Assembly: GCA_023954745.1 (NCBI GenBank)
Contig: JAGSHC010000001.1
Span: 14,356-78,355 of the forward strand
Direction of reading: 5' to 3'
DNA from: Deltaproteobacteria bacterium
Lineage (GTDB): Bacteria > Myxococcota_A > UBA796 > UBA9615
DNA length: 64,000 nucleotides
In this document: positions 3,967-43,631 of the stretch, in pieces
Layout of the letters: each line of letters opens with the position of its first letter
How positions within the stretch are numbered: the first letter of the stretch is position 1
Translations under genes and position numbers: made by a program
The notes under the pieces: generated by a model
What the model saw: only the letters and a program-made list of their open reading frames with translations
What the model was told of the DNA's origin: nothing
Databases searched by the model: none

Positions 3967-5346
3967 CTACTTCCCGATGCAGAAGCGGGCGAAGAGCTCG
4001 TCGAGCACACGCTCGTCGACCCACTGTCCGGTCAGCTCCTCGAGGGCGCGCCCCGCCCGGCGCAAGGCCACCGCCGCCAACACCGGCTCCTCAGGGCCCG
4101 CTCCCAACGCTTCCCCGACAGCACCGTGGGCAGCAACCATGGCGTCCTCCTGACGGGCCGTGTGGAGCACCAGCTCCGCGGGACCTGTCGACACCTCACT
4201 GGCCGTGACGATGGCGTCGCGCACCGCCTCGAGGCCAGTCCCGCCCGGACCATCGACCAGGGTCCATTCCTCGCCCAGCGCTCTACGTTGGGCGTCCGTC
4301 AGGAGGTCTGCGTGGGTCGCCACGGCCACCGTGGGCGCCGTGGATGGCGCGGAAAGGGCAGCATCCTGATGGAGAGAGTCAGCCGGTCTCCGGCCGTCCT
4401 GCACCAGAACGACCACGTCCGCCTCGGAGCGCGCGCGACTCGATCGCTCGATGCCGATGGCTTCCACCGGATCACTCGTCTCGCGAAGGCCCGCGGTGTC
4501 CTCGAGGCGAAAAGCGACCCCCGCCCACTCCACCGTCTCGGAGACGACGTCGCGCGTGGTGCCGGCGATGGGCGAGACGATGGCGCGGTCGTGGCCGAGC
4601 AACGCGTTGAGCAGCGTCGACTTCCCTGCGTTGACGGGACCCGTGATGGCGACTCTGACCCCATCGAGGAGACGCCGTCCAGCGCGTGCGGTGTCGACGA
4701 GTGCACCCATCTCCCGCGAGAGATCGGCCAGCCCGTCGAGGTGATGGGCCACCTCGTCTTCCTCGACCTCATCGGGAAAGTCCACGAGGGCCTCGAGCGC
4801 CACGGCTGCCCCCAGGAGACGTCCCGTCCACCCGTGGAGGCGCTGCCCCAGCTCGCCCCCCAGATGCCGCTGAGCGACCCGTGCGGCGGCCGCGCTGGGT
4901 GCTCGAATCAGCGCATCGACCCCTTCGGCCTGGAGCATCGACAGCTTGCCGTGGGCGAGGGCTCGCCGAGTGAACTCCCCGGGCCCCGCCAACCGGGCTC
5001 CCCCCGCGACACAGGCATCGAGGGCCAAGCGCAGAAGCACGGGGTTGCCGTGCATCTGGAGCTCGACGACGTGTTCGCCGGTGTAGCTGTGCGGGGCTCG
5101 AAACCAAGCGAGAAGAGCGCGATCGAGCGGCCGATTCGCCACGTCGTGCACGGTCACCAGAGTCAGACGACGGTCCTGGGACTCCGAGGGAGTCCGACGC
5201 GTCAGCTGATGGACAATGCGCTCGAGACCGGCGAGCTCGCCCGAGAGGCGCACGACGCCGATGGCTCCACGCCCTTGGGGCGTCGAGACCGCGACAATGA
5301 CGTCGTCCACGAGATGGGCGGCCTGCCCGAGAAGGGAGTCCGCCAC
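3967..5346 (-). CDS. mnmE: tRNA modification GTPase MnmE (TrmE)
   Basis: 459 aa from a GTG start. The N-terminus reads [24 protein letters not shown]-domain motifs [14 protein letters not shown] and DTAG are present, and the C-terminus is the signature CIGK. Confidence 0.92.
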
Positions 5347-5353
5347 CGGGTGA

Positions 5354-6003
5354 CTAGTCGTCGTCGTCCGGCTTGATCTTCACGGACTTGAAGGAGCCTT
5401 CCCCGACGGACTTGCTCTTCACACCCTCGGTCTCCTTGACCATGTTGTGCACCACGTGGCGCTCGTAGCCGTTCATGCGGCGCAGAGTCACGGAGTCACC
5501 GGTGTTCAAGACCCGGTTGATGCCCTCGCGGATTTCGTCCTCGAGCTCCGCCTCGCGGTCTCCGAGGTAGCCGTCGACGTCCAGGGACACCTTGCCCTCG
5601 ACCCCAGACTTCGCCATCACCTTGCCGAACAGGTGCTGGAACGCGGGGAGGTTCTTGCCCTCGCGTCCGATCAGCAGTCGCCCGTCTTCGGCGCCGGCGA
5701 TGTCGATGACGAGACGGTCACCGTGCCGCCAGGTCCGGAGCGCAGCACCGTTGTCGAACCAGCCGAGCAGCTCGCGCAGCCAGGCCTTGCCCGTGCTGGT
5801 GAGCTCTTCGTCGGCCTTTCGGGCCTCGAGCACGGCGGGATCGAGCTCGCGGGCCTTGACCAGAACCGACCAGGCGCCACCACGGAAGTGCTCGCGCTCG
5901 TAGGCCCAGTCCATGTCGTCAGGCGTCTCGACGCCGAGCTTCTTGGCTGCGTCGGCAAGGGCCTCGAAGAGGGTCGTTCCCTCGCCCTGATAGATGGTCT
6001 CGC

Positions 6004-6007
<4 letters not shown>
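5354..6007 (-). CDS. jag: RNA-binding protein Jag/KhpB (KH + R3H domains)
   Basis: The internal ATG (MSETIYQGEG...) inside track ORF 5354..6583 gives a 217-aa protein with a C-terminal R3H-like region. Its ATG overlaps the yidC stop (ATGA), the conserved yidC-jag order. Confidence 0.8.
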
Positions 6008-7739
<1,732 letters not shown>

Positions 7740-31186: not shown

Positions 31187-32827
31187 ATGACCTGGACGCG
31201 ACGACAGATGCTCGAGATGGGCGCCAAGGCTGGACTGCTCGGCGTGGCGCCCGTGGCCGTGGGTTGCCCCACCGAGGCAAACGATGACGACAGCGCGCTC
31301 GACGACGGCTGGCCGGCGCTTGAGCCCTGCGACCCCGAGGTCGTCGACTATGAGTACACCGGTACGCCCGGCCCCGAGGATCTCTTCAGCCACGGCGTGG
31401 CTAGCGGCGACCCTCTCGCAGACTCGTTGATTCTCTGGACGCGCGTCACGCCCGGCTCCGAGGCGGACGTCGAGGTCTATTGGGAGGTCTCGCAGACCTC
31501 GGGCTTCGACACCGTGTACGCGTCGGGCATCACCACCACCAACGCCGACCGCGACTACACGGTCAAGGTCGAGTCCACCTGCCTCGCCCCGGCGACGACC
31601 TACTACTACCGGTTCCAGAGTCTCGGCCGCACGTCGGTCATCGGGCGCACCCGCACCGCGTCGTACGGTCCCACGGCCAGCAAGCGCTTTGCCTTCTGCT
31701 CCTGCTCGTCGATGCCTCATGGCTACTTCCACGCCTACCGCGCCATCGGTGAGCGGGCCGACCTCGAGGCCGTGCTGCACCTGGGCGACTACATCTACGA
31801 GTACGGGAACAACGAGTACGGAGACGTGCGCGACGTGGACCCGCCCTACGAGATCGTGACGTTGTCGGACTATCGCCGTCGCCACGCCTTCTACAAGCTG
31901 GATGAGGACCTGCAGGAGGCCCACCGGCAGCACCCGTGGATCTGCACCTGGGACGACCACGAGACGGCAAACAACAGCTTCTCGGGCGGAGCCCAGAACC
32001 ACAACACGGGTGAGGGCGACTGGGACGACCGCAAGGAGGCGGGCCGGCAGGCCTACTTCGAGTGGCTGCCCATTCGCGAAGGGAACGAAGGACGGCTCTA
32101 CCGTCAGTTCCTCACGGACGACCTGCTCGACATCATCGTCCTCGACACGCGCATCGAAGGGCGTGACGAGGAGGGCAGCACCGTGGACCAGGCCTACGCG
32201 GAGGACCGGCAGCTCCTCGGCGAGGAGCAGGAGAACTGGCTCTTCGAGCGACTCAGCAGCTCACCCTCGCGGTGGAAGCTCCTGGCGCAGCAGGTCGTGA
32301 TGGGGCAGTGGTCCCTGGCCGCCGATGACGAGGGCCGACCTCGACCGCTGAACTACGACGCGTGGGACGGATACCAGGCAGCCCGCCGAAGGCTCCTCGA
32401 GCGGGTGGTGGGTGATGGCGTCGATGGACTGGTGGTGCTGACCGGCGACGTGCACAGCTCGTGGGCCAACGACATCGCCCTCGACTTCCCTTCCTACATC
32501 GGGGCGAGCCAGGAGGGCTCCGTGGCCGTCGAGGCCGTGTGTCCCGGCATCACGTCGCCCGGCGCCGGAGGCTTGTCGGGGGCGCTTCAAGCGCTGAACC
32601 CCCACATCCGCTGGGGCGACTCGGGGCGCCGCGGTTTCGTGCTCGTGGACGCGACCCAGGACGCACTTCAGTGCGACTGGTACCTCATGGACGACGGTTC
32701 CATCGAGCAGAGCGACTTCGTCGAGCCCACGGTGCGCGCCAGCTACCGGGTCATCCCCGGCGACATGCGTTGGGTCGAAGCGTCGGCGCCCATCTCGGGG
32801 TCATCTGGTCCGCCGCTGGCTCCCTGA
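31187..32827 (+). CDS. phoD: PhoD-family alkaline phosphatase/phosphodiesterase (Tat-secreted)
   Basis: An internal ATG gives the Tat signal MTWTRRQMLEMGAKAGLLGVAPVAV. PhoD motifs follow: ...GVASGDPLADSLILWTRV..., ...LHLGDYIYEY... and ...TWDDHETANN.... Confidence 0.85.
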   Translation: MTWTRRQMLEMGAKAGLLGVAPVAVGCPTEANDDDSALDDGWPALEPCDPEVVDYEYTGTPGPEDLFSHGVASGDPLADSLILWTRVTPGSEADVEVYWEVSQTSGFDTVYASGITTTNADRDYTVKVESTCLAPATTYYYRFQSLGRTSVIGRTRTASYGPTASKRFAFCSCSSMPHGYFHAYRAIGERADLEAVLHLGDYIYEYGNNEYGDVRDVDPPYEIVTLSDYRRRHAFYKLDEDLQEAHRQHPWICTWDDHETANNSFSGGAQNHNTGEGDWDDRKEAGRQAYFEWLPIREGNEGRLYRQFLTDDLLDIIVLDTRIEGRDEEGSTVDQAYAEDRQLLGEEQENWLFERLSSSPSRWKLLAQQVVMGQWSLAADDEGRPRPLNYDAWDGYQAARRRLLERVVGDGVDGLVVLTGDVHSSWANDIALDFPSYIGASQEGSVAVEAVCPGITSPGAGGLSGALQALNPHIRWGDSGRRGFVLVDATQDALQCDWYLMDDGSIEQSDFVEPTVRASYRVIPGDMRWVEASAPISGSSGPPLAP

Positions 32828-33815: not shown

Positions 33816-34157
33816 TCAGTCGTCGCCCTTGGAGTCGTCGTCACCCGAGTCGTCATCGTCACCCGAGTCGTCGTCGTCACCCGTCGCGTCATCGTCGTCG
33901 TCGTCGCCCTTGGAGTCGTCGTCGTCGCCCGTCGCGTCGTCGTCATCGTCGCCCGTCGCGTCGTCGTCATCAGTGATCGGGTCGTCGTCTTCGGCCCCCA
34001 CGATGGCGTCCGCCGAGTCGTCGTCGTCCCGTCCCCCAGAGGGGTTTGAGCCCGGAGGTCCAGCGGGGAATGGGTAGCCCGAACCACCGCAGGCCGCGAC
34101 GAAGAGAACAAGGATGAGAAGAACGAAGAACGAGCGCATGGAGGCATGCTGGCACAC
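33816..34157 (-). CDS. Small lipoprotein with a ~70-aa poly-aspartate repeat tail (DDDDATGDDDD-type repeats)
   Basis: Signal peptide/lipobox MRSFFVLLILVLFVAAC (ATG at 34139, or 34157). The mature part is almost entirely D4-5 blocks separated by ATG/SG/SKG, encoded by (GTC)n/(GAC)n trinucleotide runs. It is divergent from the STAND regulator with 23-41 bp between start codons. Confidence 0.6.
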   Translation of the reverse strand: MCQHASMRSFFVLLILVLFVAACGGSGYPFPAGPPGSNPSGGRDDDDSADAIVGAEDDDPITDDDDATGDDDDDATGDDDDSKGDDDDDDATGDDDDSGDDDDSGDDDSKGDD

Positions 34158-34180
34158 AGCATCTTGCTACTTTGTAACAG

Positions 34181-37021
34181 ATGCCCGAACTCATCCTGGG
34201 AGACACGAAGATCGACCTCTCCAACGGTCTCGTGACCGGCCCGGGGGGGGAGTTCACCCTCACTCCCCGAGAGCACACCCTCATCGAGATCCTCGCCTTG
34301 GTGCCAGGCCAGGTGGTGTCCCGCCAGCAGCTTGCTGGGGAGGGGCCAACCCGCGCCGCGGACATGGCGTTGAGCCGGCTTCGTCGTCGGCTCGGCGAGG
34401 CGGGTCGCCACATCGCGACCGTCCGAGGAGTTGGCTATCGACTCGAGCTGGGTGGTGAGGCGGTCCTGGACCTCGGGTGGGGACGGCTGGACCTGCCGGG
34501 TCGCACGGTGCGCGTCGGCGAGAGCCGGACGCGGCTCTCACCTCAAAGCGCTCGTCTGTTGGACCTGCTTGCTCAGACGCCGGGGCGCCCCGTTCCTCGG
34601 ACCACCCTGGCTCGGGAGTTGTGGGGCAGCGCCTCGGAGCAAGCGCGGTTGGACGTCGCCGTGCATCGACTGCGGCAGGGCCTCGAGCTCGACCCGGCGC
34701 AGCCTCGGTTCGTGGTGTCGGTCCCCGAGAGAGGTCTGGTCCTCCTGGATGCGCGGCTCGCCCGACAGAGCCACGTCCGCCCGCGCGCTGCTGCCTTGCT
34801 GGGGCGGGACCAGCTCCTTCGTCGGATCCTCCAGGTGCTGGAGAGCTCCCACGCGCGGCTGATGCTTCAGGGTCCACCGGGAATCGGGAAGTCCGCGTTG
34901 GCGACGGCCGTCGCTGCGCGTTGGCTGCTCCACGCGGGTCGGAGTCATCACGCCATCGACCTGCACGGAAGCGGCTCGGTCACCGAGGCGGAAGCGCGGC
35001 TGGCCGCATCCCTGGGCATGGAGGACGTAGGAGATGACGAGGCGCTCTCCAGGTCCCTGGCAGCTCGGGGCGCGCTTCTCCTCGTCTTCGATGGGGACCC
35101 GCCGGCAGAGTTCGCCGCCCGCCTCGCACGGATCGCCGACCTCACGAAGTCACTGCGCCTCCTGGTGGCCGGACGGCGCACGCTCCCCAGCTACGACACC
35201 CTCGTTGTCGACGGGCTCTCCATCGAAGCGGCGACGACGCTCCTCGAGCGGAGGGCCGGCCGCTCTCTGGTGGGAGTCGACGCGCGACTGGTGGGGCGTC
35301 TCCAGGGCAATCCCCTGGCCATCGAGCTGGTGGGGAGTCGACTTCGGGGCGGCTCTGACGCTCGCCTCGCTCGAGATCTCGACCTGCCACTCATTCCATT
35401 GCGCCGTGCCTGGAGGACCGCGCTCGAGCCTCTCTCGGACGAAGTGCGCCGAGTTGCAGCCCACGCCAGTCGGTTCCACCGACCGTTCAGTGTCGAAGAC
35501 CTTGCGGCGGTCGTGGATCTGTCGCTCGAGGAGGCAGGGCGGCATGCGGGGCACCTCGTGGCCGAGTCGGTGTTCCGGGTCGTGCCAGGGGGCACGCTCG
35601 CCGTTCCTCACGCCGCACGCGAGTTCCTCGCCGGTGAGGCGCGTTGGTTGCCGCGGGCGAGGTACCAGGTCCGCTGTCTCGATGTGCTCGCGCAGCTCGT
35701 CGCGGATGTGCCGAGGCTCGGTGGCGCGGCGATGAGGACCCTCGAGCAGCGATGGCCGGACCTGCGCCGGGGCCTCGACGCCGCGACGGCAGCCAAGGGG
35801 ATGCCGCTCCTGGCGAGCTTGGCCCGGGAGACGGCGGAGCGGATCCCACGGGCCCGCGCCGACGGGTTCGCGGAGCAGCTCCTCTCTGGCGCGGAGGACT
35901 CGTCCCTCTCGGGTCTCACCCGGGCGAGCTGCTTGAGGGGAGTCCACGCGATGCGTTGGTCGCGTCAGAGCCGAGCTGAGCGGGAGCAGCTCCTGCGCAC
36001 AGCGCTCGAGTTGGCCAACCACGATGGGACTGTCGCTGCAGGAGTGGCCGCGGAGTTGGCGAGCATCGTGGCGTTCTCGTGGGGGCTGGACGAGGCGCGG
36101 CGTCTCCTGGATGACCATCCGCTCCCCAGCGACGCCCCCGCTGCCGACCGCGTCGCGCGCTACCGCCACGAGGGCCGGCTCGGGGTCTACGCCGGCAAGC
36201 CCGGTCAGGGGTTGGCCCGACTGCGCGAGGCCGTGCAGCTCGCCTCCGATGAGGAGCTTCCCCTGCTCGAAGCCCGATGCCGGATGGCTCTCGGTCAGGC
36301 GCTGAGCGTGGGAACCCTCGGGCGAGAGGCAGAACACCATCTGCACCGCGCGATGGCGCTGACCCACGACCATGAGCTGCCTGAGCAGCATGTGAGGGCG
36401 ACGCTCCGCCTCGCCCAGCATCTCCTCCGCCTGGGCTTGCGCTCAGACTCCCAGGAGCTGCTGGACTCGGCCCTCGACTCGGCGGTGCGGGCGGGTCTCC
36501 TCCGGCTCGAAGAGCAATGCGCCTCCACGCTCGGCTTCCTGCGCATCGGGACCGAGGACTTCACCGCTGCGCTGGCGAACCTCGACCGCGCAATCACCCT
36601 CAGCGAACGCCACGGCGGGCAGCGGGCGTTGTACGTGGCCCTCGCAAATCGGGGGCTCGCCCTCGCGCTCTCCGGCCGCCCCGGGCAGGCGCGGCAGGAC
36701 CTCGACGCCGCCCTCGGCAGTGCCCGAGGAGGGGGTGGCTGGTATCGCGTCCTGGGGCTGTCGTACCGCGCGGTCGCCGAGCTTCTCGATGGGGATGGCG
36801 CCGCCGCGATCAGCACGGTCGCTGAAGCTCGCGAGACCCTGGTGGAGCAAGAGCACAGCTCGGCCGCATCGCTGGACGAAGCCCTCGGCGTTCTCGACGG
36901 TCTCGCTCGATCCCGTCTCTCTCCCGACCATGTCCAGGCCTGGTGCGGAGCGTGGGGAGGGGGAGCGGAGGTGGAGGGCGTCGTCGCTGGCCTGAGGAGG
37001 GCTGTTACAAACGGAAAGTAG
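34181..37021 (+). CDS. Large STAND-class transcriptional regulator: two tandem OmpR/PhoB-type winged-helix DNA-binding domains + NB-ARC/AAA+ ATPase + C-terminal TPR-like region (AfsR/SARP-like architecture)
   Basis: 946 aa. wHTH 1 is ...LTPREHTLIEILALVPGQVVSRQQL...VRGVGYRLEL; wHTH 2 is ...RLSPQSARLLDLLAQTPGRPVPRTTLARELW...AVHRLRQGLE. The P-loop is LLGRDQLLRRILQVLESSHARLMLQGPPGIGKSALATAVAA, followed by a long helical, Ala/Leu/Arg-rich repeat region. Confidence 0.8.
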   Translation: MPELILGDTKIDLSNGLVTGPGGEFTLTPREHTLIEILALVPGQVVSRQQLAGEGPTRAADMALSRLRRRLGEAGRHIATVRGVGYRLELGGEAVLDLGWGRLDLPGRTVRVGESRTRLSPQSARLLDLLAQTPGRPVPRTTLARELWGSASEQARLDVAVHRLRQGLELDPAQPRFVVSVPERGLVLLDARLARQSHVRPRAAALLGRDQLLRRILQVLESSHARLMLQGPPGIGKSALATAVAARWLLHAGRSHHAIDLHGSGSVTEAEARLAASLGMEDVGDDEALSRSLAARGALLLVFDGDPPAEFAARLARIADLTKSLRLLVAGRRTLPSYDTLVVDGLSIEAATTLLERRAGRSLVGVDARLVGRLQGNPLAIELVGSRLRGGSDARLARDLDLPLIPLRRAWRTALEPLSDEVRRVAAHASRFHRPFSVEDLAAVVDLSLEEAGRHAGHLVAESVFRVVPGGTLAVPHAAREFLAGEARWLPRARYQVRCLDVLAQLVADVPRLGGAAMRTLEQRWPDLRRGLDAATAAKGMPLLASLARETAERIPRARADGFAEQLLSGAEDSSLSGLTRASCLRGVHAMRWSRQSRAEREQLLRTALELANHDGTVAAGVAAELASIVAFSWGLDEARRLLDDHPLPSDAPAADRVARYRHEGRLGVYAGKPGQGLARLREAVQLASDEELPLLEARCRMALGQALSVGTLGREAEHHLHRAMALTHDHELPEQHVRATLRLAQHLLRLGLRSDSQELLDSALDSAVRAGLLRLEEQCASTLGFLRIGTEDFTAALANLDRAITLSERHGGQRALYVALANRGLALALSGRPGQARQDLDAALGSARGGGGWYRVLGLSYRAVAELLDGDGAAAISTVAEARETLVEQEHSSAASLDEALGVLDGLARSRLSPDHVQAWCGAWGGGAEVEGVVAGLRRAVTNGK

Positions 37022-37056
37022 TGGAATCTAGGCTGGTCTCCACCAAGGAGGTACCC

Positions 37057-38652
37057 ATGCTTCGAGTCCATCACATTCCGCTGGCGCTACTGGTTCTGGG
37101 TCTCGGCTGCGTGCCCGAGCCCGCCGAGGTTCCGGAGCCCTACGACGACGGCGAACCCGACGACAGCTACACCGACGACGACGACGCGACTGACTACCCG
37201 ACCGACGACGACGACGCCACCAGCGACGACGACGACATGGCGGGCGACGACGACGACGACGCCACCAGCGACGACGACGACCTGGCGGGAGACGACGACG
37301 ACGACGTCGAGCCGCCACCGGAGGACGGCGACGGCGATGCCTGCCTGGACGCGTTCGAGGCGACGACGACGGCGTTCGTCTCGGCGGACGACAGCAACTC
37401 CCAGGCAGACCCCGTGCACAACCAGGGCCTCGTGTCCGGTGGCGTGCGGCCCTCGTCTGCCAAGGCCTGGGAGTACCTCAACTACGCCGAGTTCGACTTC
37501 GCTCCCGCGTCGGCGGGGAGCATTCGTATTGAGCCCCAGCTCCTGGAGCATCCCTCCGAGCCGGGTCGCTATGACCTGATGGTCGCGGTGGTGGCGCCGG
37601 ACCTCGACCCGACGGCTCGCGAGCCAATGAATCTCGTGTTCGCCGTGGACACGTCCTGCTCCATGAGCGGCTCGAGTCTCGCTGCAGCGAAGCAGACACT
37701 CGAGGCCATTGCTGGAAGCCTCGAAGGCGACGACGTCGTCTCCATCGTGCAATGGAGCTACAGCACGGGCCTGGTCCTCGACTCCCATCCTGTCACGGGG
37801 CCCGACGACATCACGCTCCTCAACGCCATCGACGGGCTCAGCACCGGCGGCGGGACGAACCTCAACGGTGGCCTCATGGCCGGGTTTGAGCTCGCTCAGG
37901 ACAACTACCTGCCGTCCCGGACGAACCGGGTGGTGCTGATCTCCGACGGCGGAGCGAACGCAGGCGTCACGAGCATCGACCTCATCGCCCAGAACGCCGC
38001 CTACGGGACGGACGAGGGGATCTTCCTCGCTGGGATCGGGGTTCCGCCGGCCAACGGCTACAACGACACCCTGATGGACGACGTCACCGACGCGGGGAAG
38101 GGCTCGTACTTCTACGTCGACTCGGAGGGCGAAGCGGAGGCCCAGTTCTCCCCCGAGGGGCTGCTGCGCGCCTTCGAGGTGGCTGCCCTCGACGTGCAGC
38201 TGGCGATCACGCTCCCTCCGGGCTTCGTCATCGACGAGTTCTCAGGGGAAGAGATTGGCTGGACGCCGAGCGCGGTGGAGCCGCAGAACCTCTCGCCCAA
38301 CGACCAGATGCTCTACGAGATGGATGTGGTGGACTGCTCCGCAGACGCGGACTCCCTCGCTCACGAGTTCGTCTTCACCGTGGAGTGGATTGAGCCGGAG
38401 ACGGGCATCGCCCGCGTCGACTCCGTCACGACCAGCCTGGGCCAGTTGATGGCCGAGCCGGGACGCGAGCTCGCAAAGGCGCGGGCTCTGGTGAGTCTCG
38501 CCGAGGTGGCCAACGCTCCATGGGGCGACCAGGGCGGCGAGCTCGACAGCGCGATCAGCGAGCTCCAGACCGCGTCATCGGCGCTGCCGGCAGACCCCGA
38601 CCTGGGCTGGTTCATCGACCACGCCCAGGACTGGCGAGCGCTGATTCCCTGA
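37057..38652 (+). CDS. Lipoprotein with N-terminal poly-aspartate repeat linker and a von Willebrand factor A (vWA) domain
   Basis: The ATG at 37057 is preceded by AAGGAGG. The signal/lipobox is MLRVHHIPLALLVLGLGC. Poly-Asp repeats follow (DDDDATDYPTDDDDATSDDDDMAGDDDDDATSDDDDLAGDDDDD), then a vWA MIDAS region (LVFAVDTSCSMSG...T...LISDGGANAG). Confidence 0.8.
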   Translation: MLRVHHIPLALLVLGLGCVPEPAEVPEPYDDGEPDDSYTDDDDATDYPTDDDDATSDDDDMAGDDDDDATSDDDDLAGDDDDDVEPPPEDGDGDACLDAFEATTTAFVSADDSNSQADPVHNQGLVSGGVRPSSAKAWEYLNYAEFDFAPASAGSIRIEPQLLEHPSEPGRYDLMVAVVAPDLDPTAREPMNLVFAVDTSCSMSGSSLAAAKQTLEAIAGSLEGDDVVSIVQWSYSTGLVLDSHPVTGPDDITLLNAIDGLSTGGGTNLNGGLMAGFELAQDNYLPSRTNRVVLISDGGANAGVTSIDLIAQNAAYGTDEGIFLAGIGVPPANGYNDTLMDDVTDAGKGSYFYVDSEGEAEAQFSPEGLLRAFEVAALDVQLAITLPPGFVIDEFSGEEIGWTPSAVEPQNLSPNDQMLYEMDVVDCSADADSLAHEFVFTVEWIEPETGIARVDSVTTSLGQLMAEPGRELAKARALVSLAEVANAPWGDQGGELDSAISELQTASSALPADPDLGWFIDHAQDWRALIP

Positions 38653-38714: not shown

Positions 38715-39575
38715 CTACCGGGCGGCGATCTCCGGGTTCAACGCGTTGTCGAACGCCGCCTCACCACCGGGTCCCTGGCTCTCGCCGAGATCGCCATCTT
38801 CGCGCCGAATCTCTCGGAGGCGTTCCGCGGCCGTCGGTACGTCGATGCCGTGCTCTTCAATGGCCTTGAGGATCACGTCCTGCATCACCGGGTACTTCTC
38901 GGCGCAGTACTGCTCGCTATCCAGCTCGCGGGTCTTGCCGACCAGCTTTCCGTAGAACAGGCGCCCGTACACGTCTGCGGGAACCCCGAAGACGCAGGTG
39001 GCCTGGGTGTCGAACAAGATGAACTGGCGCTTGAGCTTCTTCTTCCCCGTGATGCCCAGCTCGTCGAGGCGCTGGTCGGACTCGCTCTCCTCGTAGATGG
39101 GAGAGAAGTGCCGGATGCCGTACTCCTGGCTGTAGAACCGGCGGTTGCGCCGAATCACCGACTCCATCTGCTCGGGGATGGTCGACTGGGCGCGAATGGA
39201 CCCGTCCGCCAGGTAGGGGACCTCGTTCTGGAGGCACCAGTAGATGGCGAAGGCGTGCATCGACAGTCGGCACCCGAGGCACACGAGCGAGCTCATGTTG
39301 AAGCCGTACTCGCGCAGGTCCGCCCCCACATCCACTCCCAGGATGTCCTTGATGAAGTGGCGGATGTCGATGATTCGGTGCTCGACGCGGTCGGCGCCGA
39401 ACCGCTCCTGCAGGGCCTCGGCGTGGACCTTGGTGTTGTCGAGGAACAGCAGGTAGCCGGGGTCGAAGGTGAGCAGCGTGACCTTGTCGCACTCGTCCAG
39501 CATCTGAGCGGCGGCGAGGGTCGAGTCGGTGCCTCCCGAAAAGAGGACGGCCGCATGGGCCTTTCGTTTCGTCAC
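38715..39575 (-). CDS. PP-loop superfamily ATP pyrophosphatase (adenine nucleotide alpha-hydrolase fold)
   Basis: A GTG start (codon 208 of track ORF 38715..40196) overlaps the upstream stop (GTGA). The PP-loop is AVLFSGGTDSTLAA and there are Cys motifs CLGC and, later, C...C. The upstream 207 codons of the track ORF are an Arg/Pro-rich antisense overlap with the DegT gene and are not considered coding. Confidence 0.6.
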   Translation of the reverse strand: MTKRKAHAAVLFSGGTDSTLAAAQMLDECDKVTLLTFDPGYLLFLDNTKVHAEALQERFGADRVEHRIIDIRHFIKDILGVDVGADLREYGFNMSSLVCLGCRLSMHAFAIYWCLQNEVPYLADGSIRAQSTIPEQMESVIRRNRRFYSQEYGIRHFSPIYEESESDQRLDELGITGKKKLKRQFILFDTQATCVFGVPADVYGRLFYGKLVGKTRELDSEQYCAEKYPVMQDVILKAIEEHGIDVPTAAERLREIRREDGDLGESQGPGGEAAFDNALNPEIAAR

Positions 39576-40750
39576 GTGACGGCTCCGGTGGAGGTCGAGC
39601 GAGTAATCCCAGGCGGTCGCAGGCTCAGCGATCGCTCGAGGGCAGAGACGGTGCGGTCCACTTCGTCGTAGGTCATCCCCGGGAAGCAGGGCAGCGACAA
39701 CACGTGGTTGCTCAGGTGCTCCGCGACCGGAAGGGCGCGCTCGGTGGGATATGGGGCCATCTGGTGGCAGGGCACGGGGTAGTGGAGTCCGACGCCGACC
39801 TGGTGCTCGTCGATCATCTGGTTGAAGACCCGGTCTCGCACCGAGGCGTCGGTGCCCAAGGTCAGCTCCACCACGAAGAGGTGGTAGACGTGCCGCGGGT
39901 CGTCGGCGGGCAGCTTCATGACGTGGCTGTGTGCGCTGAGGCGCTCGCGGTAGGCGTCCGCGATGGCGCGCCGCTGCTGGGTCCACTGCCGCAGGTGCTT
40001 CAGCTTCACGCGCAGACAGGCCGCCTGAATGTCGTCGAAGCGGGAGTTCACCCCGACCTCGCTCACGCGGTGTTTGCCGGCGCGGCCATGGTTCCGCAGG
40101 GAGCGGATGCGGTTGGCGTGTCGCTTCGTCTTGCTGATGACGAACCCGCCATCCCCGAGGGCCCCGAGGTTCTTCCCGGGGTAGAAGCTGTAGCAAGTGA
40201 GGTCGGTGTCCTGGGACACGTCGGGCGACGCGTGGCTCTGGGCCGCGTCGCCGATGAGCCAGATGTCGTTTCGCTCGGCGGATTCGAGGACTTCGCGGAT
40301 CCCCGCGCAGTCGGCTCGCCGGCCGTACAGATGGATCGGGATGACGGCCTTGATGGCGTCGGCCCCGGGCTCGTCGAGGATGCGCGCGAGATCTGCAGGG
40401 TCCAGGGAGCGCGTCGCTGGGTGCGCGTCACAGAAGACCACCCGCGCTCCGGTGCGCGCGATGGACTCGGGTGTGGCCACGAACGAGTTGGACACGGTGA
40501 CGACCGCGTCGCCAGGGCCGACGTCCAGCGCTCGCAGAGCGAGGTAGAGGGCGTCGGAGCCCGAGCCGCAGCACACACCGGTGCCCCCGCCTTCGTGGCG
40601 GGCGAACTCCGCTTCGAACGCCTCGGTCTCGGGGCCCAGGAGGTAGCGGCTGGAAGCGACCACGCGGGCGAAGGCCTCTCCGAGGTCCTTCGCGATGGGG
40701 TCGTGCATCCGCCGGAGGTCGACCAGCGGGAGAAAGTCGGGACGCGTCAT
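39572..40750 (-). CDS. DegT/DnrJ/EryC1/StrS-family PLP-dependent sugar aminotransferase
   Basis: 392 aa with ...VVASSRYLLGPETEAFEAEFARH..., ...CGSGSDALYLALRAL... and the PLP-Lys region ...FYPGKNLGALGDGG.... Confidence 0.9.
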   Translation of the reverse strand: MTRPDFLPLVDLRRMHDPIAKDLGEAFARVVASSRYLLGPETEAFEAEFARHEGGGTGVCCGSGSDALYLALRALDVGPGDAVVTVSNSFVATPESIARTGARVVFCDAHPATRSLDPADLARILDEPGADAIKAVIPIHLYGRRADCAGIREVLESAERNDIWLIGDAAQSHASPDVSQDTDLTCYSFYPGKNLGALGDGGFVISKTKRHANRIRSLRNHGRAGKHRVSEVGVNSRFDDIQAACLRVKLKHLRQWTQQRRAIADAYRERLSAHSHVMKLPADDPRHVYHLFVVELTLGTDASVRDRVFNQMIDEHQVGVGLHYPVPCHQMAPYPTERALPVAEHLSNHVLSLPCFPGMTYDEVDRTVSALERSLSLRPPGITRSTSTGAVT

Positions 40751-41137: not shown

Positions 41138-41944
41138 CTACTTGCCCCCCTGTCCGTTGTCCGAGCCACCACCGCGATTCGCGTCACGGCGGGCCTTGCC
41201 GGCTGACTCGCTCGGCTTCCCGGCGTTCTTGTCGTTGGAGTCCTTGCGCGCCTTGCCGGCGCTCTCCGGCTTGTTGGCGTCCTTGCGCGCCTTGCCGCGG
41301 GACTCCGAGGGCTTCCCGGCAGAGCGATCGTCGGGCGCCTTCTTCGCGTCGTCCGCCATGTCCTTGCCCTTGGCCTGGCCTTCTCCAGCCATGTCCTTGC
41401 CCTTGGCCATGTCCTTGCCCTTGGCCATGTCCTTGCCCTTGGCCTGGCCTTCGCCCGCCATGTCCTTGCCCTGGCCGCGCCCGGTCCAGGTGCCGGCCTC
41501 CTTTGCGGCCTTCTTCGCCTCGCGACGCACCTGGTTCTCGGCCTTGATGGCCGTCGCGAGGTCCTGGCCCTTCTTCCCCTCGTCGAGCTGGGTCTTCACC
41601 CAACTGCCGAAGTTGCCTTCCCAGGCGTCTCCGTCGCCCTTGCTCTGGGCGGCGTCGAGCACCTCTCCCGCTTCGCTCGCGTCGAGCCCAGCGCCCTTGA
41701 CCGCGTCGATGGCGCCAGCCACCTCGTCGTCGGCCATCCCGCTCTCGCGCAGCTCCTTGGCCTTCGAGGGCAGGTCAATGGCGTCCATCAGGCGCTTCTG
41801 GGCGTCCGCGGACATCGCGGCGCCCTTGGCGCTGGCGTCGGCGGTGGCCTCGGCCTTCTTCTCTTCGTGGTGGTCCGCCAGAGCCGGCGTGGCCCACAGG
41901 GCGGCGGCTGCGAGCAGCCAGAGTCGTGTCTTCATCTTCGTCAT
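41138..41944 (-). CDS. Secreted low-complexity Lys-rich repeat protein
   Basis: 268 aa with signal peptide MTKMKTRLWLLAAAALWATPALA. Tandem KGKDMA/GEGQAKGKDMA repeats (nt ~41354-41470) are followed by AGKPSES(R/A)GKAR(K/R)D(A/S)N repeats (nt ~41177-41323). Confidence 0.5.
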   Translation of the reverse strand: MTKMKTRLWLLAAAALWATPALADHHEEKKAEATADASAKGAAMSADAQKRLMDAIDLPSKAKELRESGMADDEVAGAIDAVKGAGLDASEAGEVLDAAQSKGDGDAWEGNFGSWVKTQLDEGKKGQDLATAIKAENQVRREAKKAAKEAGTWTGRGQGKDMAGEGQAKGKDMAKGKDMAKGKDMAGEGQAKGKDMADDAKKAPDDRSAGKPSESRGKARKDANKPESAGKARKDSNDKNAGKPSESAGKARRDANRGGGSDNGQGGK

Positions 41945-41974
41945 CCTTTCAGGGGTCCTTCTGTGGACCGGGCG

Positions 41975-43588
41975 CTACTTCTTCTTCTTCTTCTTCTTCG
42001 AGCTGCTGGAACTGCTGGAGCCGCTCCCCGTGCTGCTCGAAGACGAGCCGCTCCCCTTGCTGCTCGAGGACGAGCTGCTTCCCTTGCTGGAGCTGCCGGA
42101 GCTGCTCGAACTGGAGGAGCTCGAGGAGCCGGTGGCCTTGCTGCTCGTCTGGTTCGAGGTGGTCGACGTTGTGCCCCCTGCAAGGGGGATGTTGATGGGC
42201 ACCGTGATGGGTCCGTAGCCGGGGTCGATGGAGATCTCACCCATGAGCCGAAGCCCTGTGAAGTCGGGCTTGGCGCCCGTCGCGGCGGCGGACAAGAGGT
42301 TCGTGCCGAGCTTGTCCCAGTTGAACTCGCTCATGAGCTGAAGCTCTGAGCTGCCCTGGGCGCCGATGCTCAGGTGCTGCTGCTTCGTGCTGCCGAGGTT
42401 TGCCCCCATGACCCCGGGGGCGGCGACGCCGATCAGCGCCACCGGCGTGCCGTCGGCCGCGACGATGCCGAGCTTGAACGAGGGCGCGGTCACTGCGAAC
42501 TCGTTGGGGTTCTCGATGTTGAACGGCGTCGAGATGCGGATGCCCTGGGGCAGAGCCGTGGGGATCACGAGGTTCCCGATGGTGGGGTTGTTCTTGAAGT
42601 CGACCCAGCCGGCCTGGAAGTCGTTGATCTTCTTGGCGGCCTTGGGGTCGAGAGTCCCGAGCAGGGTGGTCAGCTTCGGAAGGTCCACCGGAACCTGAAC
42701 CGAGTTGTTCTTGCTGCCGATGGTGGACTTCCCGTTGAGCTGCAGCACGCCGTTGATGGCGGTGAGGGCAGCGCTGGTCAGGTTGCTCGGCACGCCGATG
42801 CGCTCGAGCAGCTCCCCCACGGGGATGTCCACCTTCTGGTTCACGGCGGCGTTCTCGAACTGCTCGAGGAACGCGGCCAAGGGCTCGACCTTGCTGGTCA
42901 ACTCGCCAATGAGGTTGTCCACGTTGGCCGTCTCGGACGTACCCACGAGGGCGACCTCGGGCTTCGCGCCCTCCTTGCCCTTGATCTTGGGGAACTTGGG
43001 GAGCCGCAGGTTGCCTTCGTGGGCGAAGGTCAGCTTCGCCTTGCCGAGTCCCTCCCCAGCGCTCCCCTCGAGGGCCTGGAGCCCGGTGGAGAGCAAGCCT
43101 TCGCCTGCCTTCTTCGCTTCGTCGGAGACCACCTCCGCCCCGGGAATCTGCCCGAGGATGTCGATGATCTCCTTGGGCACGTCCACATTGGCATCGGCAG
43201 TGAACGCGATGGTGGCGTCCTTCCCGAACGCCTTCCCGACGCCGTCTTCGCTTAGGTCCACGCGGAAGTCGTACTTGATGGTCTTCGCGGTGCCAGCGGC
43301 CACGTCGAAGCCCTTCTTCGTTCCCGTGCTGGCCACGTTGGAGCCATCGATCTGGAGGCCGAAGTCATGGCCAGGAACCTTGAGCTTGATGCCGGTGGGG
43401 TTCTTGACCTTGAAGTTGAAGCCGACGTCGAGCTCCACCTTCTGAGAGCCAGGCTCCTTCTGCACGGTCCTCACGGTCATGCCCGCGAAGGCCGCGGAGG
43501 GGATCTTGCCGGTCATGCACCCCGAGCTGAGGCCGAGGGGAAGGACGAGCGCGCAGAGAAGCAGCGCGCGAGCGAAGCGTTGGGTCAT
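41975..43588 (-). CDS. Lipoprotein with two WHy/LEA_2-like domains and a C-terminal Ser-tract ending in Lys7
   Basis: An internal ATG gives MTQRFARALLLCALVLPLGLSSGC. NPTGIKLKVPGHDFGLQIDG... and NPNEFAVTAPSFKLGIVAADGTPVA resemble LEA_2/WHy beta-sandwich domains. The last ~75 aa are S/G/T/K low complexity ending in KKKKKKK. Confidence 0.55.
   Translation of the reverse strand: MTQRFARALLLCALVLPLGLSSGCMTGKIPSAAFAGMTVRTVQKEPGSQKVELDVGFNFKVKNPTGIKLKVPGHDFGLQIDGSNVASTGTKKGFDVAAGTAKTIKYDFRVDLSEDGVGKAFGKDATIAFTADANVDVPKEIIDILGQIPGAEVVSDEAKKAGEGLLSTGLQALEGSAGEGLGKAKLTFAHEGNLRLPKFPKIKGKEGAKPEVALVGTSETANVDNLIGELTSKVEPLAAFLEQFENAAVNQKVDIPVGELLERIGVPSNLTSAALTAINGVLQLNGKSTIGSKNNSVQVPVDLPKLTTLLGTLDPKAAKKINDFQAGWVDFKNNPTIGNLVIPTALPQGIRISTPFNIENPNEFAVTAPSFKLGIVAADGTPVALIGVAAPGVMGANLGSTKQQHLSIGAQGSSELQLMSEFNWDKLGTNLLSAAATGAKPDFTGLRLMGEISIDPGYGPITVPINIPLAGGTTSTTSNQTSSKATGSSSSSSSSSSGSSSKGSSSSSSSKGSGSSSSSTGSGSSSSSSSKKKKKKK
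41978..41998. repeat. (CTT)7 trinucleotide microsatellite encoding the terminal Lys7 of the WHy-lipoprotein
   Basis: Seven consecutive CTT codons lie immediately before the stop (reverse strand AAG x7). Upstream are imperfect (GCT/GGA)n Ser-coding repeats. Confidence 0.8.
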
Positions 43589-43631
43589 GGGATGGGCTCC
43601 TCGGGGCTGCGGATGACCGCGCCCCACGTGT

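Follow-up and report, generated by a model that had tools for sequence, protein, structure and literature searches.

Organization of the Locus

The locus described here lies in a 64-kb stretch of contig JAGSHC010000001.1 from a Deltaproteobacteria bacterium; the whole stretch is referred to as the window, and its GC content is ~68%. At the center of the locus is a gene for a 946-residue transcription factor of the STAND class (signal transduction ATPases with numerous domains), which is predicted to be cytoplasmic (34181-37021, + strand). Directly upstream and on the opposite strand, an open reading frame (ORF) call places a small gene (33816-34139, - strand) encoding 107 residues from an ATG codon. 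Its product has a signal peptide, a lipobox with Cys-17, and a disordered chain of D4–6 runs separated by short spacers, and it is called here the poly-Asp lipoprotein. An alternative start at GTG 34157 would give a protein of 113 residues. Between the start codons of the two divergent genes lie 41 nt, a distance that shrinks to 23 nt with the GTG codon as start.

Downstream of the regulator and on the same strand is a gene (37057-38652, + strand) for a 531-residue lipoprotein with a von Willebrand factor A (vWA) domain and a metal ion-dependent adhesion site (MIDAS), identified from its Pfam VWA match and from the naming of its homologues as COG2304/YfbK-like. Its ATG (37057) follows the regulator stop codon after 35 nt, and a Shine-Dalgarno sequence, AAGGAGG (37045-37051, + strand), ends 5 nt ahead of it. 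The short gap together with the strong Shine-Dalgarno sequence suggests that the vWA gene is probably co-transcribed with the regulator. In the 64-kb window, two or more D4 runs occur only in the poly-Asp and vWA genes. The three ORFs, the divergent spacing of 23-41 nt, the perfect AAGGAGG, and the Asp repeats all agree in position with a first-pass annotation of the same DNA. That annotation was also right to place the vWA gene next to the regulator, but the gap it gave as 36 bp measures 35 nt.

Conservation of the Regulator/Poly-Asp Gene Pair

Genome and metagenome scans and contig look-ups yielded 15 loci with an orthologous regulator, including the window. Four further loci (L007, L011, L012, and L013) were left out as partial paralogues or single winged helix-turn-helix (wHTH) matches. 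The regulators of the 15 loci are 40-75% identical to one another, and in every one of these loci a poly-Asp lipoprotein gene is situated directly upstream of the regulator and divergent from it. Beyond the poly-Asp gene the neighbors differ per locus, with an MBL hydrolase in the window and Aldedh, HAD, APH, or hemerythrin genes elsewhere. Because the outer neighbors change in every locus, the pair is taken to be under selection for linkage. One distant locus was checked, that of the tandem-wHTH STAND protein P0028, and a divergent poly-Asp gene is absent there.

The vWA gene is present in 8 of the 15 loci. It lies downstream of the regulator in the window, L001, L008, L015 (as a fragment), L016, L017, and L020, and in L009 it sits on the far side of the poly-Asp gene after a rearrangement. 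In L014, the closest relative (65% identity), the vWA gene is cleanly absent and a NAGPA gene directly follows the regulator; in L008 a NAGPA gene comes after the vWA gene. Other loci have a DUF2330 gene (L004 and L006) or a gene for a TSP3-repeat lipoprotein (L019) downstream of the regulator, and L017 has the vWA gene followed by a DUF2330 gene. The gap to the downstream gene is 29-64 nt in most loci and 200 nt in L019.

The conserved unit is thus two genes, the regulator and the poly-Asp lipoprotein. The vWA gene is facultative, exchangeable cargo and not a defining part, since it occurs in only these eight loci, belongs to a far larger family (at least 490 members at E ≤ 1e-5, compared with ~24 regulators), and has paralogues at loci without the regulator. 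Of the three-gene co-occurrence that had been proposed for this locus, the pair of regulator and poly-Asp gene holds in all loci and the vWA gene does not belong to it.

The DUF2330 proteins (L004:3089-4783 and 4585-6492, L006:1372-3144, and L017:8026-9669) have an N-terminal ACGG(F/L)FC motif and an internal poly-Asp insert at about residues 105-140. A search of the literature on DUF2330 returned nothing relevant.

The host lineage consists of uncultured, high-GC, mostly marine Myxococcota-like bacteria known from metagenome-assembled genomes (MAGs). The contigs of L001-L005 are titled "uncultured Rickettsiales bacterium," a label that looks wrong or like a placeholder. Their ORFs have a third-position GC of ~0.8-0.97, they encode MopE-like repeat proteins, and the vWA gene of L001 belongs to a family with Nannocystaceae homologues.

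The Poly-Asp Lipoprotein

The poly-Asp protein of the window begins with MRSFFVLLILVLFVAAC and continues with D4–6 runs and the peptide spacers ATG, SKG, and SG. The lipobox is FVAAC, with VAAC at residues 14-17; the lipobox calls for this protein and for the vWA protein were made only by comparison with the lipobox pattern [LVI][ASTVI][GAS]C. The mature chain is 44% Asp and contains seven runs of D4 or longer. The poly-Asp tract (residues 38-107; 33819-34028, - strand) is an imperfect tandem array with periods of 18, 21, 24, and 45 according to Tandem Repeats Finder (TRF), and its Asp codons are GAC (32) and GAT (4).

An alignment of the orthologues (A3) reveals one non-repetitive conserved block in the mature protein, the motif I-V-G-A-E-D-D-D-P (residues 46-54; 33978-34004, - strand). 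The lipobox Cys (in 14 orthologues), Gly-48, Glu-50, Asp-51, and Pro-54 are invariant. Every copy consists of a signal peptide, the lipobox Cys, a short spacer, the motif [ILM]-[VI]-G-x-E-D-[DN]-D-P (in short, G-x-E-D-x-D-P), and then D4–8 runs separated by two or three small residues. The mature proteins are 58-129 residues long, with 34-55% Asp and 4-13 D4 runs, and a DDDDSAR C terminus recurs in several of them. In L016 (4506-4943, - strand) and L019 (4494-4943, - strand), the unit formed by [GL][ML]VGAEDD[DN]P and poly-Asp is present twice, and through this internal duplication the proteins reach 145-149 residues with 12-13 D4 runs.

The poly-Asp regions could have been unconserved filler, a possibility that the first-pass annotation had raised. 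The retention of the lipobox, the G-x-E-D-x-D-P motif, the high Asp content, and often the DDDDSAR end speaks against it. The same annotation described long, length-variable GAC runs. The length does vary among orthologues, but the runs are not long, perfect ones having ~5 units or fewer. The TRF arrays, with periods of 3, 18, 21, 24, and 45, show 68-88% matches, and only 68-71% for period 3. Replication slippage in the GAC tracts is plausible.

The poly-Asp protein matches no Pfam or NCBIfam family. A profile search for similar lipoproteins gave five matches at E ≤ 0.01, in a search blunted by low-complexity words that swamp the candidates, and nothing relevant was found in the literature on bacterial poly-Asp lipoproteins. 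The family appears to be unannotated and undescribed.

In L001, the poly-Asp gene (6700-6990, - strand) has an in-frame TAG just past the lipobox (LSCDG*GSP...). The sister locus L015 (4664-4975), whose regulator is 75% identical to that of L001, has TAC (Tyr) at this position. The TAG of L001 is a nonsense mutation, the mark of a pseudogene, or an assembly error.

The STAND Regulator

The N-terminal part of the regulator consists of two OmpR/PhoB-type wHTH domains. The first (wHTH1, residues 4-89; 34190-34447, + strand) was assigned from NCBIfam and PDB profile matches, and the second (wHTH2, residues 94-189; 34460-34747, + strand) from Pfam, NCBIfam, and PDB profile matches. Their recognition helices are RAADMALSRLRRRLG and ARLDVAVHRLRQGLE, respectively. 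Pfam reports Trans_reg_C twice (E 5e-27) and weak matches to AAA_16, NACHT, nSTAND, and TPR families. The two wHTH domains are paralogous and non-identical (34% identity), and both match the solved DNA-binding domains of OmpR, PhoB, KdpE, and RegX3. A BTAD domain (PF03704) was not detected in the regulator by Pfam at E ≤ 0.01. The AlphaFold2 (AF2) model leaves no room for one, because wHTH2 ends at about residue 189 and a disordered linker (residues 191-198) leads straight into the NOD (nucleotide-binding oligomerization domain) at about residue 206, with no helical domain between. There is likewise no Response_reg match to a receiver domain, and the matches to MtrA, PhoB, and OmpR span only the C-terminal DNA-binding parts of those proteins.

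The wHTH pair is followed by an NB-ARC-like NOD (residues 206-480; 34796-35620, + strand), delimited by sequence alignment (A1), PDB profile, and Foldseek. In A1, which contains 22 orthologues, the Walker A motif GPPGIGKS is invariant, with Gly-231, Pro-233, Gly-234, Gly-236, and Lys-237. Also invariant are Asp-304 and Gly-305 of the Walker B motif LLLVxDG (LLLVFDG in the window), the sensor-1 Arg-332, and Gly-376, Asn-377, Pro-378, and Ala-380 of GNPLA; PHAARE is a further conserved segment of the NOD. Residues 208-471 match NB-ARC domains from the nucleotide-binding leucine-rich repeat receptors (NLRs) of plants by PDB profile. The remainder of the protein (residues 481-946; 35621-37018, + strand) is an all-helical, TPR-like sensor, as judged from AF2 secondary structure, Foldseek, and conservation.

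The AF2 model (pLDDT 87.6) contains two wHTH domains, an α/β NOD with helical and winged-helix subdomains, and ~25 TPR-like helices. In Foldseek it aligns best with the crystal structure of a STAND-TPR protein (6mfv, E 4e-14); further matches are NRC2, NRC4, Apaf-1, CED-4, and Roq1, and the TPR domains of LGN for the sensor. The regulator therefore has all the sequence and fold hallmarks of a STAND protein, namely Walker A, Walker B, the Arg, GxP, and a NOD followed by a repeat sensor. These hallmarks mark it as an intact STAND switch whose output part is a pair of wHTH domains, with predicted use of ATP.

Column identity in 15-residue windows is 0.90 for the wHTH1 recognition helix and 0.84 for that of wHTH2, compared with 0.67 for the whole protein. 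The most conserved helices of the TPR sensor, at residues 693-707, 714-728, and 740-754, reach 0.87-0.93. This region (residues 693-755; 36257-36445) contains the nearly invariant residues Cys-700, Glu-718, His-719, His-720, His-731, and His-747. These residues could form a ligand or metal site or an autoinhibitory interface with the NOD.

Two other assignments were considered and rejected. The regulator has OmpR-type wHTH domains but lacks the BTAD that defines a SARP (Streptomyces antibiotic regulatory protein). An anti-phage STAND protein (Avs and related) is not indicated either, since PADLOC gave only P-loop-level matches with E > 1e-3 and the effector is a DNA-binding domain.

Pfam, AF2, and Foldseek thus bear out the earlier description of two fused OmpR-type domains without a BTAD, followed by a STAND NTPase and TPR helices. 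The view that such a tandem is unusual had to be abandoned. When residues 1-200 were searched against 1.84 billion representative proteins, many proteins of ~950-1050 residues aligned across both wHTH domains. All 10 of the distant proteins sampled share the tandem, with two Trans_reg_C stretches each; a STAND NTPase is present in nine of them as well, and TPRs in eight. Two short sampled proteins (241 and 290 residues) are without the NTPase and TPR parts. Metagenome proteins such as P0041, P0057, P0076, and P0100 have the domain order and size of the window regulator, but their N-terminal identity to it is only 35-45% and none has a described function. A literature search on tandem Trans_reg_C STAND proteins found nothing relevant. 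The combination of tandem wHTH, STAND, and TPR appears to be a widespread architecture with no characterized member.

One of the distant proteins, P0164 (1303 residues), carries an inserted Ser/Thr protein kinase domain that separates the two wHTH domains from the NTPase, which indicates that the architecture is modular.

The Intergenic Element

Alignment of the intergenic regions (A2) reveals a sole conserved block, CTT[G/A]CTA-N3-TGTAAC-NN-[A/G]TG, of which the final triplet is the regulator start codon. In the window it reads CTTGCTA-CTT-TGTAAC-AG (34163-34180, no strand assigned), and it may serve as a bidirectional core promoter of the extended -10 type, as a bipartite operator, or as both. 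The element occurs once per locus, 2 nt before the regulator start codon, in 14 of the 15 loci. The single copy in the window compares with 0.11 expected at up to two mismatches.

On the plus strand the element contains TGc-TAnnnT (TGcTACTTT in the window), which resembles an extended -10 sequence and ends 7 nt before the start codon. The TAnnnT is present in all 13 loci examined and the TG in 11. The minus strand contains TGt-TACAnn (TGtTACAAA in the window), and in 7 of the 13 loci this hexamer ends in T. The plus- and minus-strand hexamers overlap by 3 nt, and in 8 of the 13 loci seven of the nine base pairs of the 19-mer are palindromic. By sequence, the element thus shows the overlapping opposite-strand -10 sequences of a pseudo-symmetric bidirectional promoter. 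In L003 and L005 both TG dinucleotides are lost and the best hexamers are found (TAGAAT and TACATT), as would be expected of compensation between promoter elements.

Because the plus-strand -10 sequence ends 7 nt ahead of the start codon, the regulator mRNA would be leaderless or have a leader of 1 nt. The predicted leader of the poly-Asp mRNA, 25-41 nt, fits the position of a GGAGG that can be seen by eye 7-10 nt before the poly-Asp ATG in L016, L018, and L019. We lean slightly toward reading the element as a shared bidirectional core promoter with a leaderless regulator mRNA. It could at the same time be the operator of the regulator, or overlap it.

A scan of the region for canonical σ70 -35/-10 promoters gave no sites. 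A σ54 reading of TGGCAC...TTGC upstream of the element was discarded on inspection by eye, as the offset from GG to GC is 15 instead of 12 and TGGCAC is unconserved elsewhere.

The centers of the two invariant blocks are ~9.5 bp apart, roughly one helical turn, and the blocks differ from each other, as do the two wHTH domains. Two cases of change in the DNA accompany change in the protein. L003 and L005 combine CTTACTA with RGADM, where the others have CTTGCTA with RAADM, and in L020 both DNA blocks and both recognition helices are altered. These are anecdotes that fit co-variation of element and helix, each a single evolutionary event.

The vWA Lipoprotein and the Shared Asp Repeat

The vWA protein begins with MLRVHHIPLALLVLGLGC; its lipobox is LGLGC, with GLGC at residues 15-18 and the Cys at position 18 by pattern match. 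Between the lipobox and the folded part is a poly-Asp tether of the form DDDDAT(S)/DDDD(M/L)AG (residues 40-83; 37174-37305, + strand), after which comes the VWA domain (PF00092, E 6.7e-12). In 36 homologues there is no variation at the MIDAS residues D-x-S-x-S, T, and D (Asp-104, Ser-106, Ser-108, Thr-173, and Asp-203 in trimmed-query numbering). Homologues are 38-58% identical, among them one in Nannocystis punicea, and the named sources of the family also include Myxococcota and Nannocystaceae. JGI labels homologues "Ca-activated chloride channel family," and the COG2304/YfbK-like name rests on this JGI annotation. Like the COG2304/YfbK-like proteins, the window protein has the SADDSNS/EYLNY N-terminal block, a complete MIDAS, and a C-terminal extension. 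PF12450 is recorded for few of the homologues, and neither PF12450 nor PF12034 (DUF3520) was detected in the window protein.

At the tether position, two or more D4 runs are found in 37 of 120 vWA homologues, about a third, as in the window protein; the remainder have no such runs and carry other tethers or none. The poly-Asp-tethered paralogues P0192, P0208, and P0199 are encoded at loci without a wHTH-STAND gene. D4 followed by two or three small residues also recurs in the inserts of the DUF2330 proteins and in several lipoproteins, unrelated to these, of L001, L007, L015, L017, and L022. With so many vWA homologues and unrelated lipoproteins carrying it, the shared repeat is best described at the sequence level as a generic acidic lipoprotein-tether pattern of the lineage.

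It had been proposed that the DDDDAT repeats of the two window lipoproteins are a duplicated module. The likeness is confined to the peptide level. The spacers are encoded by GCG ACG GGC in the poly-Asp gene and by GCC ACC AGC in the vWA gene, and the longest DNA word common to the two tracts is 18 nt of (GAC)n, so a recent duplication between the two genes was rejected. Poly-Asp tethers are found in 7 of 40 regulator-neighboring genes, compared with ~1 of 16 in control loci and 0 of ~50 elsewhere in the window, a local enrichment that is suggestive only.

Long DDDD(AT/AV/SG) tethers follow the lipobox Cys directly in three unrelated lipoproteins, L017:9853-10458 (+ strand), L022:2753-3580 (+ strand), and L007:7059-9080 (- strand). 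The L017 protein has 201 residues, 11 runs, and no Pfam family.

Model for Control of the Poly-Asp Gene

Taken as a whole, the locus is best explained as a two-gene module in which a STAND switch would control an envelope polyanion from a shared promoter, a reading to which we give about even odds. A control region of ~40-60 bp would be common to both genes, and RNA polymerase would load there in either orientation. The regulator mRNA would begin at its start codon or 1 nt before it, and the poly-Asp mRNA ~16-18 bp away on the opposite strand. Activated by a ligand and ATP, the regulator would bind at the element or beside it, its two wHTH heads in neighboring major grooves, a single AfsR-like chain doing the work of two SARP protomers. 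Its binding would bias transcription toward the poly-Asp gene and feed back on its own expression, setting the balance between transcription of the poly-Asp gene and that of the regulator and its cargo. The downstream co-directional gene would be swappable cargo, co-transcribed with the regulator.

Some regulatory link between the STAND protein and the poly-Asp gene is the part of the model that we consider rather probable, because only this pair is kept while the other neighbors change at 40-60% identity. In addition, the two conserved recognition helices parallel the two invariant DNA blocks. The poly-Asp product may be a membrane-tethered envelope brush that binds Ca2+/Mg2+ or opposes mineral nucleation, a proposal we make tentatively and with the balance leaning somewhat against it. 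Asp-rich biomineralization proteins and synthetic polyaspartate antiscalants have long Asp runs and small-residue spacers, are disordered, and carry a very high negative charge density. The window protein is similar to them in composition, but it is bacterial, lipid-anchored, shorter than 130 residues, and encoded beside a dedicated regulator. The most specific form of the proposal combines all of these elements: a switched, lipid-anchored polyaspartate would control divalent cations or the nucleation of CaCO3 or phosphate by way of a bidirectional leaderless promoter and a "pre-dimerized" OmpR-type STAND regulator. In this combination it is improbable. In a radical version, the TPR sensor of the regulator may read the poly-Asp chain itself.

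Several observations weigh against the model. No further copies of the element were found in the 64 kb or in any locus flank, so that no wider regulon is visible, and in L009, where the vWA gene is detached from the regulator, no element lies upstream of it. L020, the most divergent member, has only a degenerate element, 39 nt from the annotated start. In the clade of the window, the minus-strand hexamer ends in A (TACAAA) and the poly-Asp gene has no Shine-Dalgarno sequence. The predicted start sites are ~16-17 bp apart, while the divergent starts of pseudo-symmetric bidirectional promoters are separated by ~10, 18, or 23 bp, most often by 18 bp. The two blocks do not form a direct repeat, and their spacing of ~9.5 bp falls short of the 11 bp of afs and Pho boxes. 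Cation binding is proposed from composition alone, and poly-Asp tethers are common in these genomes, so that part of the theme near the regulator may be background. The evidence throughout is the sequence of uncultured MAGs.

Comparison with Known Systems

In AfsR, a "large SARP" STAND activator from Streptomyces coelicolor, two OmpR-type domains lie in adjacent major grooves on two 11-bp repeats that are centered at -29.5 and overlap the core promoter (PMC10936776). The NOD and TPR domains of AfsR are autoinhibitory, and ATP enhances activation (PMC10936776). The window regulator shares with AfsR the N-terminal OmpR-type DNA-binding output, the NB-ARC-like NOD, and the C-terminal TPR. In contrast to AfsR, it has no BTAD, and its second DNA-binding head is in the same chain and not in a second protomer. 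Its element consists of two unlike blocks where AfsR has direct repeats, its lineage is that of Myxococcota-like MAGs, and its presumed target is a poly-Asp lipoprotein and not afsS or antibiotic genes.

Both wHTH domains match the DNA-binding domains of the OmpR/PhoB family. Unlike the members of that family, the window regulator has no receiver domain, and its locus has no partner kinase. Activation would presumably occur by STAND nucleotide switching and not by phosphorylation-driven dimerization, and the covalent wHTH tandem would replace the head-to-tail dimer.

Pseudo-symmetric bidirectional promoters have been described in E. coli, where divergent starts are most often 18 bp apart (PMC12825309). 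RNA polymerase cannot occupy them in both orientations at once, and an activator that favors one direction lowers transcription in the opposite one (PMC12825309). The window element resembles them in that opposite-strand -10-type sequences overlap in one short symmetric sequence with predicted starts less than 20 bp apart. It differs in that its hexamers overlap by 3 nt, both are of the extended -10 (TGn) type, and one transcript is predicted to be leaderless.

Alternative Explanations

The alternative that survives best is synteny without a regulatory link, in which the targets of the regulator would be distant and the small gene would be linked to it only through a compact bidirectional promoter. 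The conserved element, read as a core promoter, could by itself explain the linkage, there is no clear OmpR/PhoB-type direct-repeat operator, and the motif has no second copy in the window or the locus flanks. Against this, retention of the regulator/poly-Asp pair alone across lineages of 40-60% identity is the pattern usually seen for a regulator with its target, and the DNA-reading helices are conserved together with the DNA element. We consider such an arrangement unlikely.

Somewhat less likely still is the proposal of the first-pass annotation, a single three-gene module for cation or surface sensing and adhesion, with a duplicated poly-Asp module in both lipoproteins under STAND control. 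The adjacency of the three genes in the window, L001, L008, L015, L016, L017, and L020, and the vWA gene still next door in L009, would agree with it, as would the 35-nt gap and strong Shine-Dalgarno sequence before the vWA gene. In some genomes the two tracts also draw on similar spacers (AAG in L017; STPG and STPYG in L020). The vWA gene is nevertheless absent from 7 of the 15 loci, including that of the closest relative, L014, and its family outnumbers the regulators (at least 490 to ~24), with poly-Asp paralogues that have no regulator nearby. Poly-Asp tethers occur in only 37 of the 120 vWA homologues, the two window tracts use different spacer codons, and DDDD followed by two or three residues is found in unrelated lipoproteins of L001, L007, L017, and L022.

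In a third explanation, the signal is the poly-Asp protein or the precursor that has not been exported: the TPR sensor, which is basic and rich in Arg, would bind the acidic tail and give feedback on export or level. TPR domains commonly bind acidic peptide tails. The highly conserved sensor helices at 693-754, the conserved C-terminal DDDDSAR of the small protein, and the strict co-inheritance in 15 of 15 loci would all agree with this explanation. However, a normal signal peptide would be expected to carry the product out of the cytoplasm, and the conserved helices are explained equally well by an autoinhibitory interface with the NOD, so that we regard it as very unlikely.

Finally, it is hardly credible that the small ORF is no gene and that the (GAC)n/(GTC)n tract is a DNA-level or antisense feature, with the Asp frame open only because GC-rich repeats of this kind contain no stop codons. 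A (GAC)n tract is open in every frame, the strand opposite the poly-Asp gene contains a poly-Ser ORF, and the Asp frame of L001 carries its TAG. In all 15 loci, however, it is only the Asp frame that has a start codon followed by a hydrophobic signal peptide with a lipobox Cys, although the DNA there differs. GGAGG precedes the poly-Asp ATG in several loci, and gene callers predict this frame in L014-L020.

Significance

Databases already contain many proteins with the regulator architecture, but the family of poly-Asp lipoproteins, the strict pairing of this family with one regulator clade, and the conserved bidirectional element appear to be undescribed. If the pairing is regulatory, it would provide the first functional handle on a large uncharacterized STAND class with two fused OmpR-type heads. 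The fused heads would then be a naturally occurring counterpart, in a single chain, of the AfsR/SARP or PhoB dimer, and the intergenic region a compact natural promoter, pseudo-symmetric and bidirectional, through which a regulator is coupled to its target, with one leaderless mRNA. The tethered-polyaspartate family could be relevant to the handling of Ca2+/Mg2+ by marine bacteria or to the way they escape encrustation with minerals. If the cation or mineral reading is true, the protein would be a genetically encoded antiscalant or cation buffer. No long-standing question is resolved by the module.

Other Genes near the Locus

A PhoD-family alkaline phosphatase (PF09423, E 1.5e-100) is encoded at 31187-32827 (+ strand), two genes from the poly-Asp gene. 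A Tat-like signal is present in the protein, as is a lipobox with an acidic stretch after it, and its gene is not kept beside the module in other loci. Convergent with the vWA gene is a gene at 38715-39503 (- strand) whose product has a PP-loop-like SGGxDS motif (AVLFSGGTDS) and matches no Pfam family at E ≤ 0.05. It is followed at 39572-40750 by a DegT/DnrJ/EryC1 aminotransferase gene.

Two more low-complexity envelope proteins are encoded at 41138-43627 (- strand), 3-5 kb downstream of the vWA gene. One, (KGKDMA)n, is a repeat protein that is rich in Lys and secreted, and the other is a LEA_2-domain lipoprotein with a long C-terminal poly-Ser tract ending in KKKKKKK. With these genes near the poly-Asp genes, envelope proteins of both kinds, polycationic and polyanionic, are encoded no more than 8 kb apart. 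AT skew dips strongly at 40-44 kb of the window, to -0.28 and -0.20.

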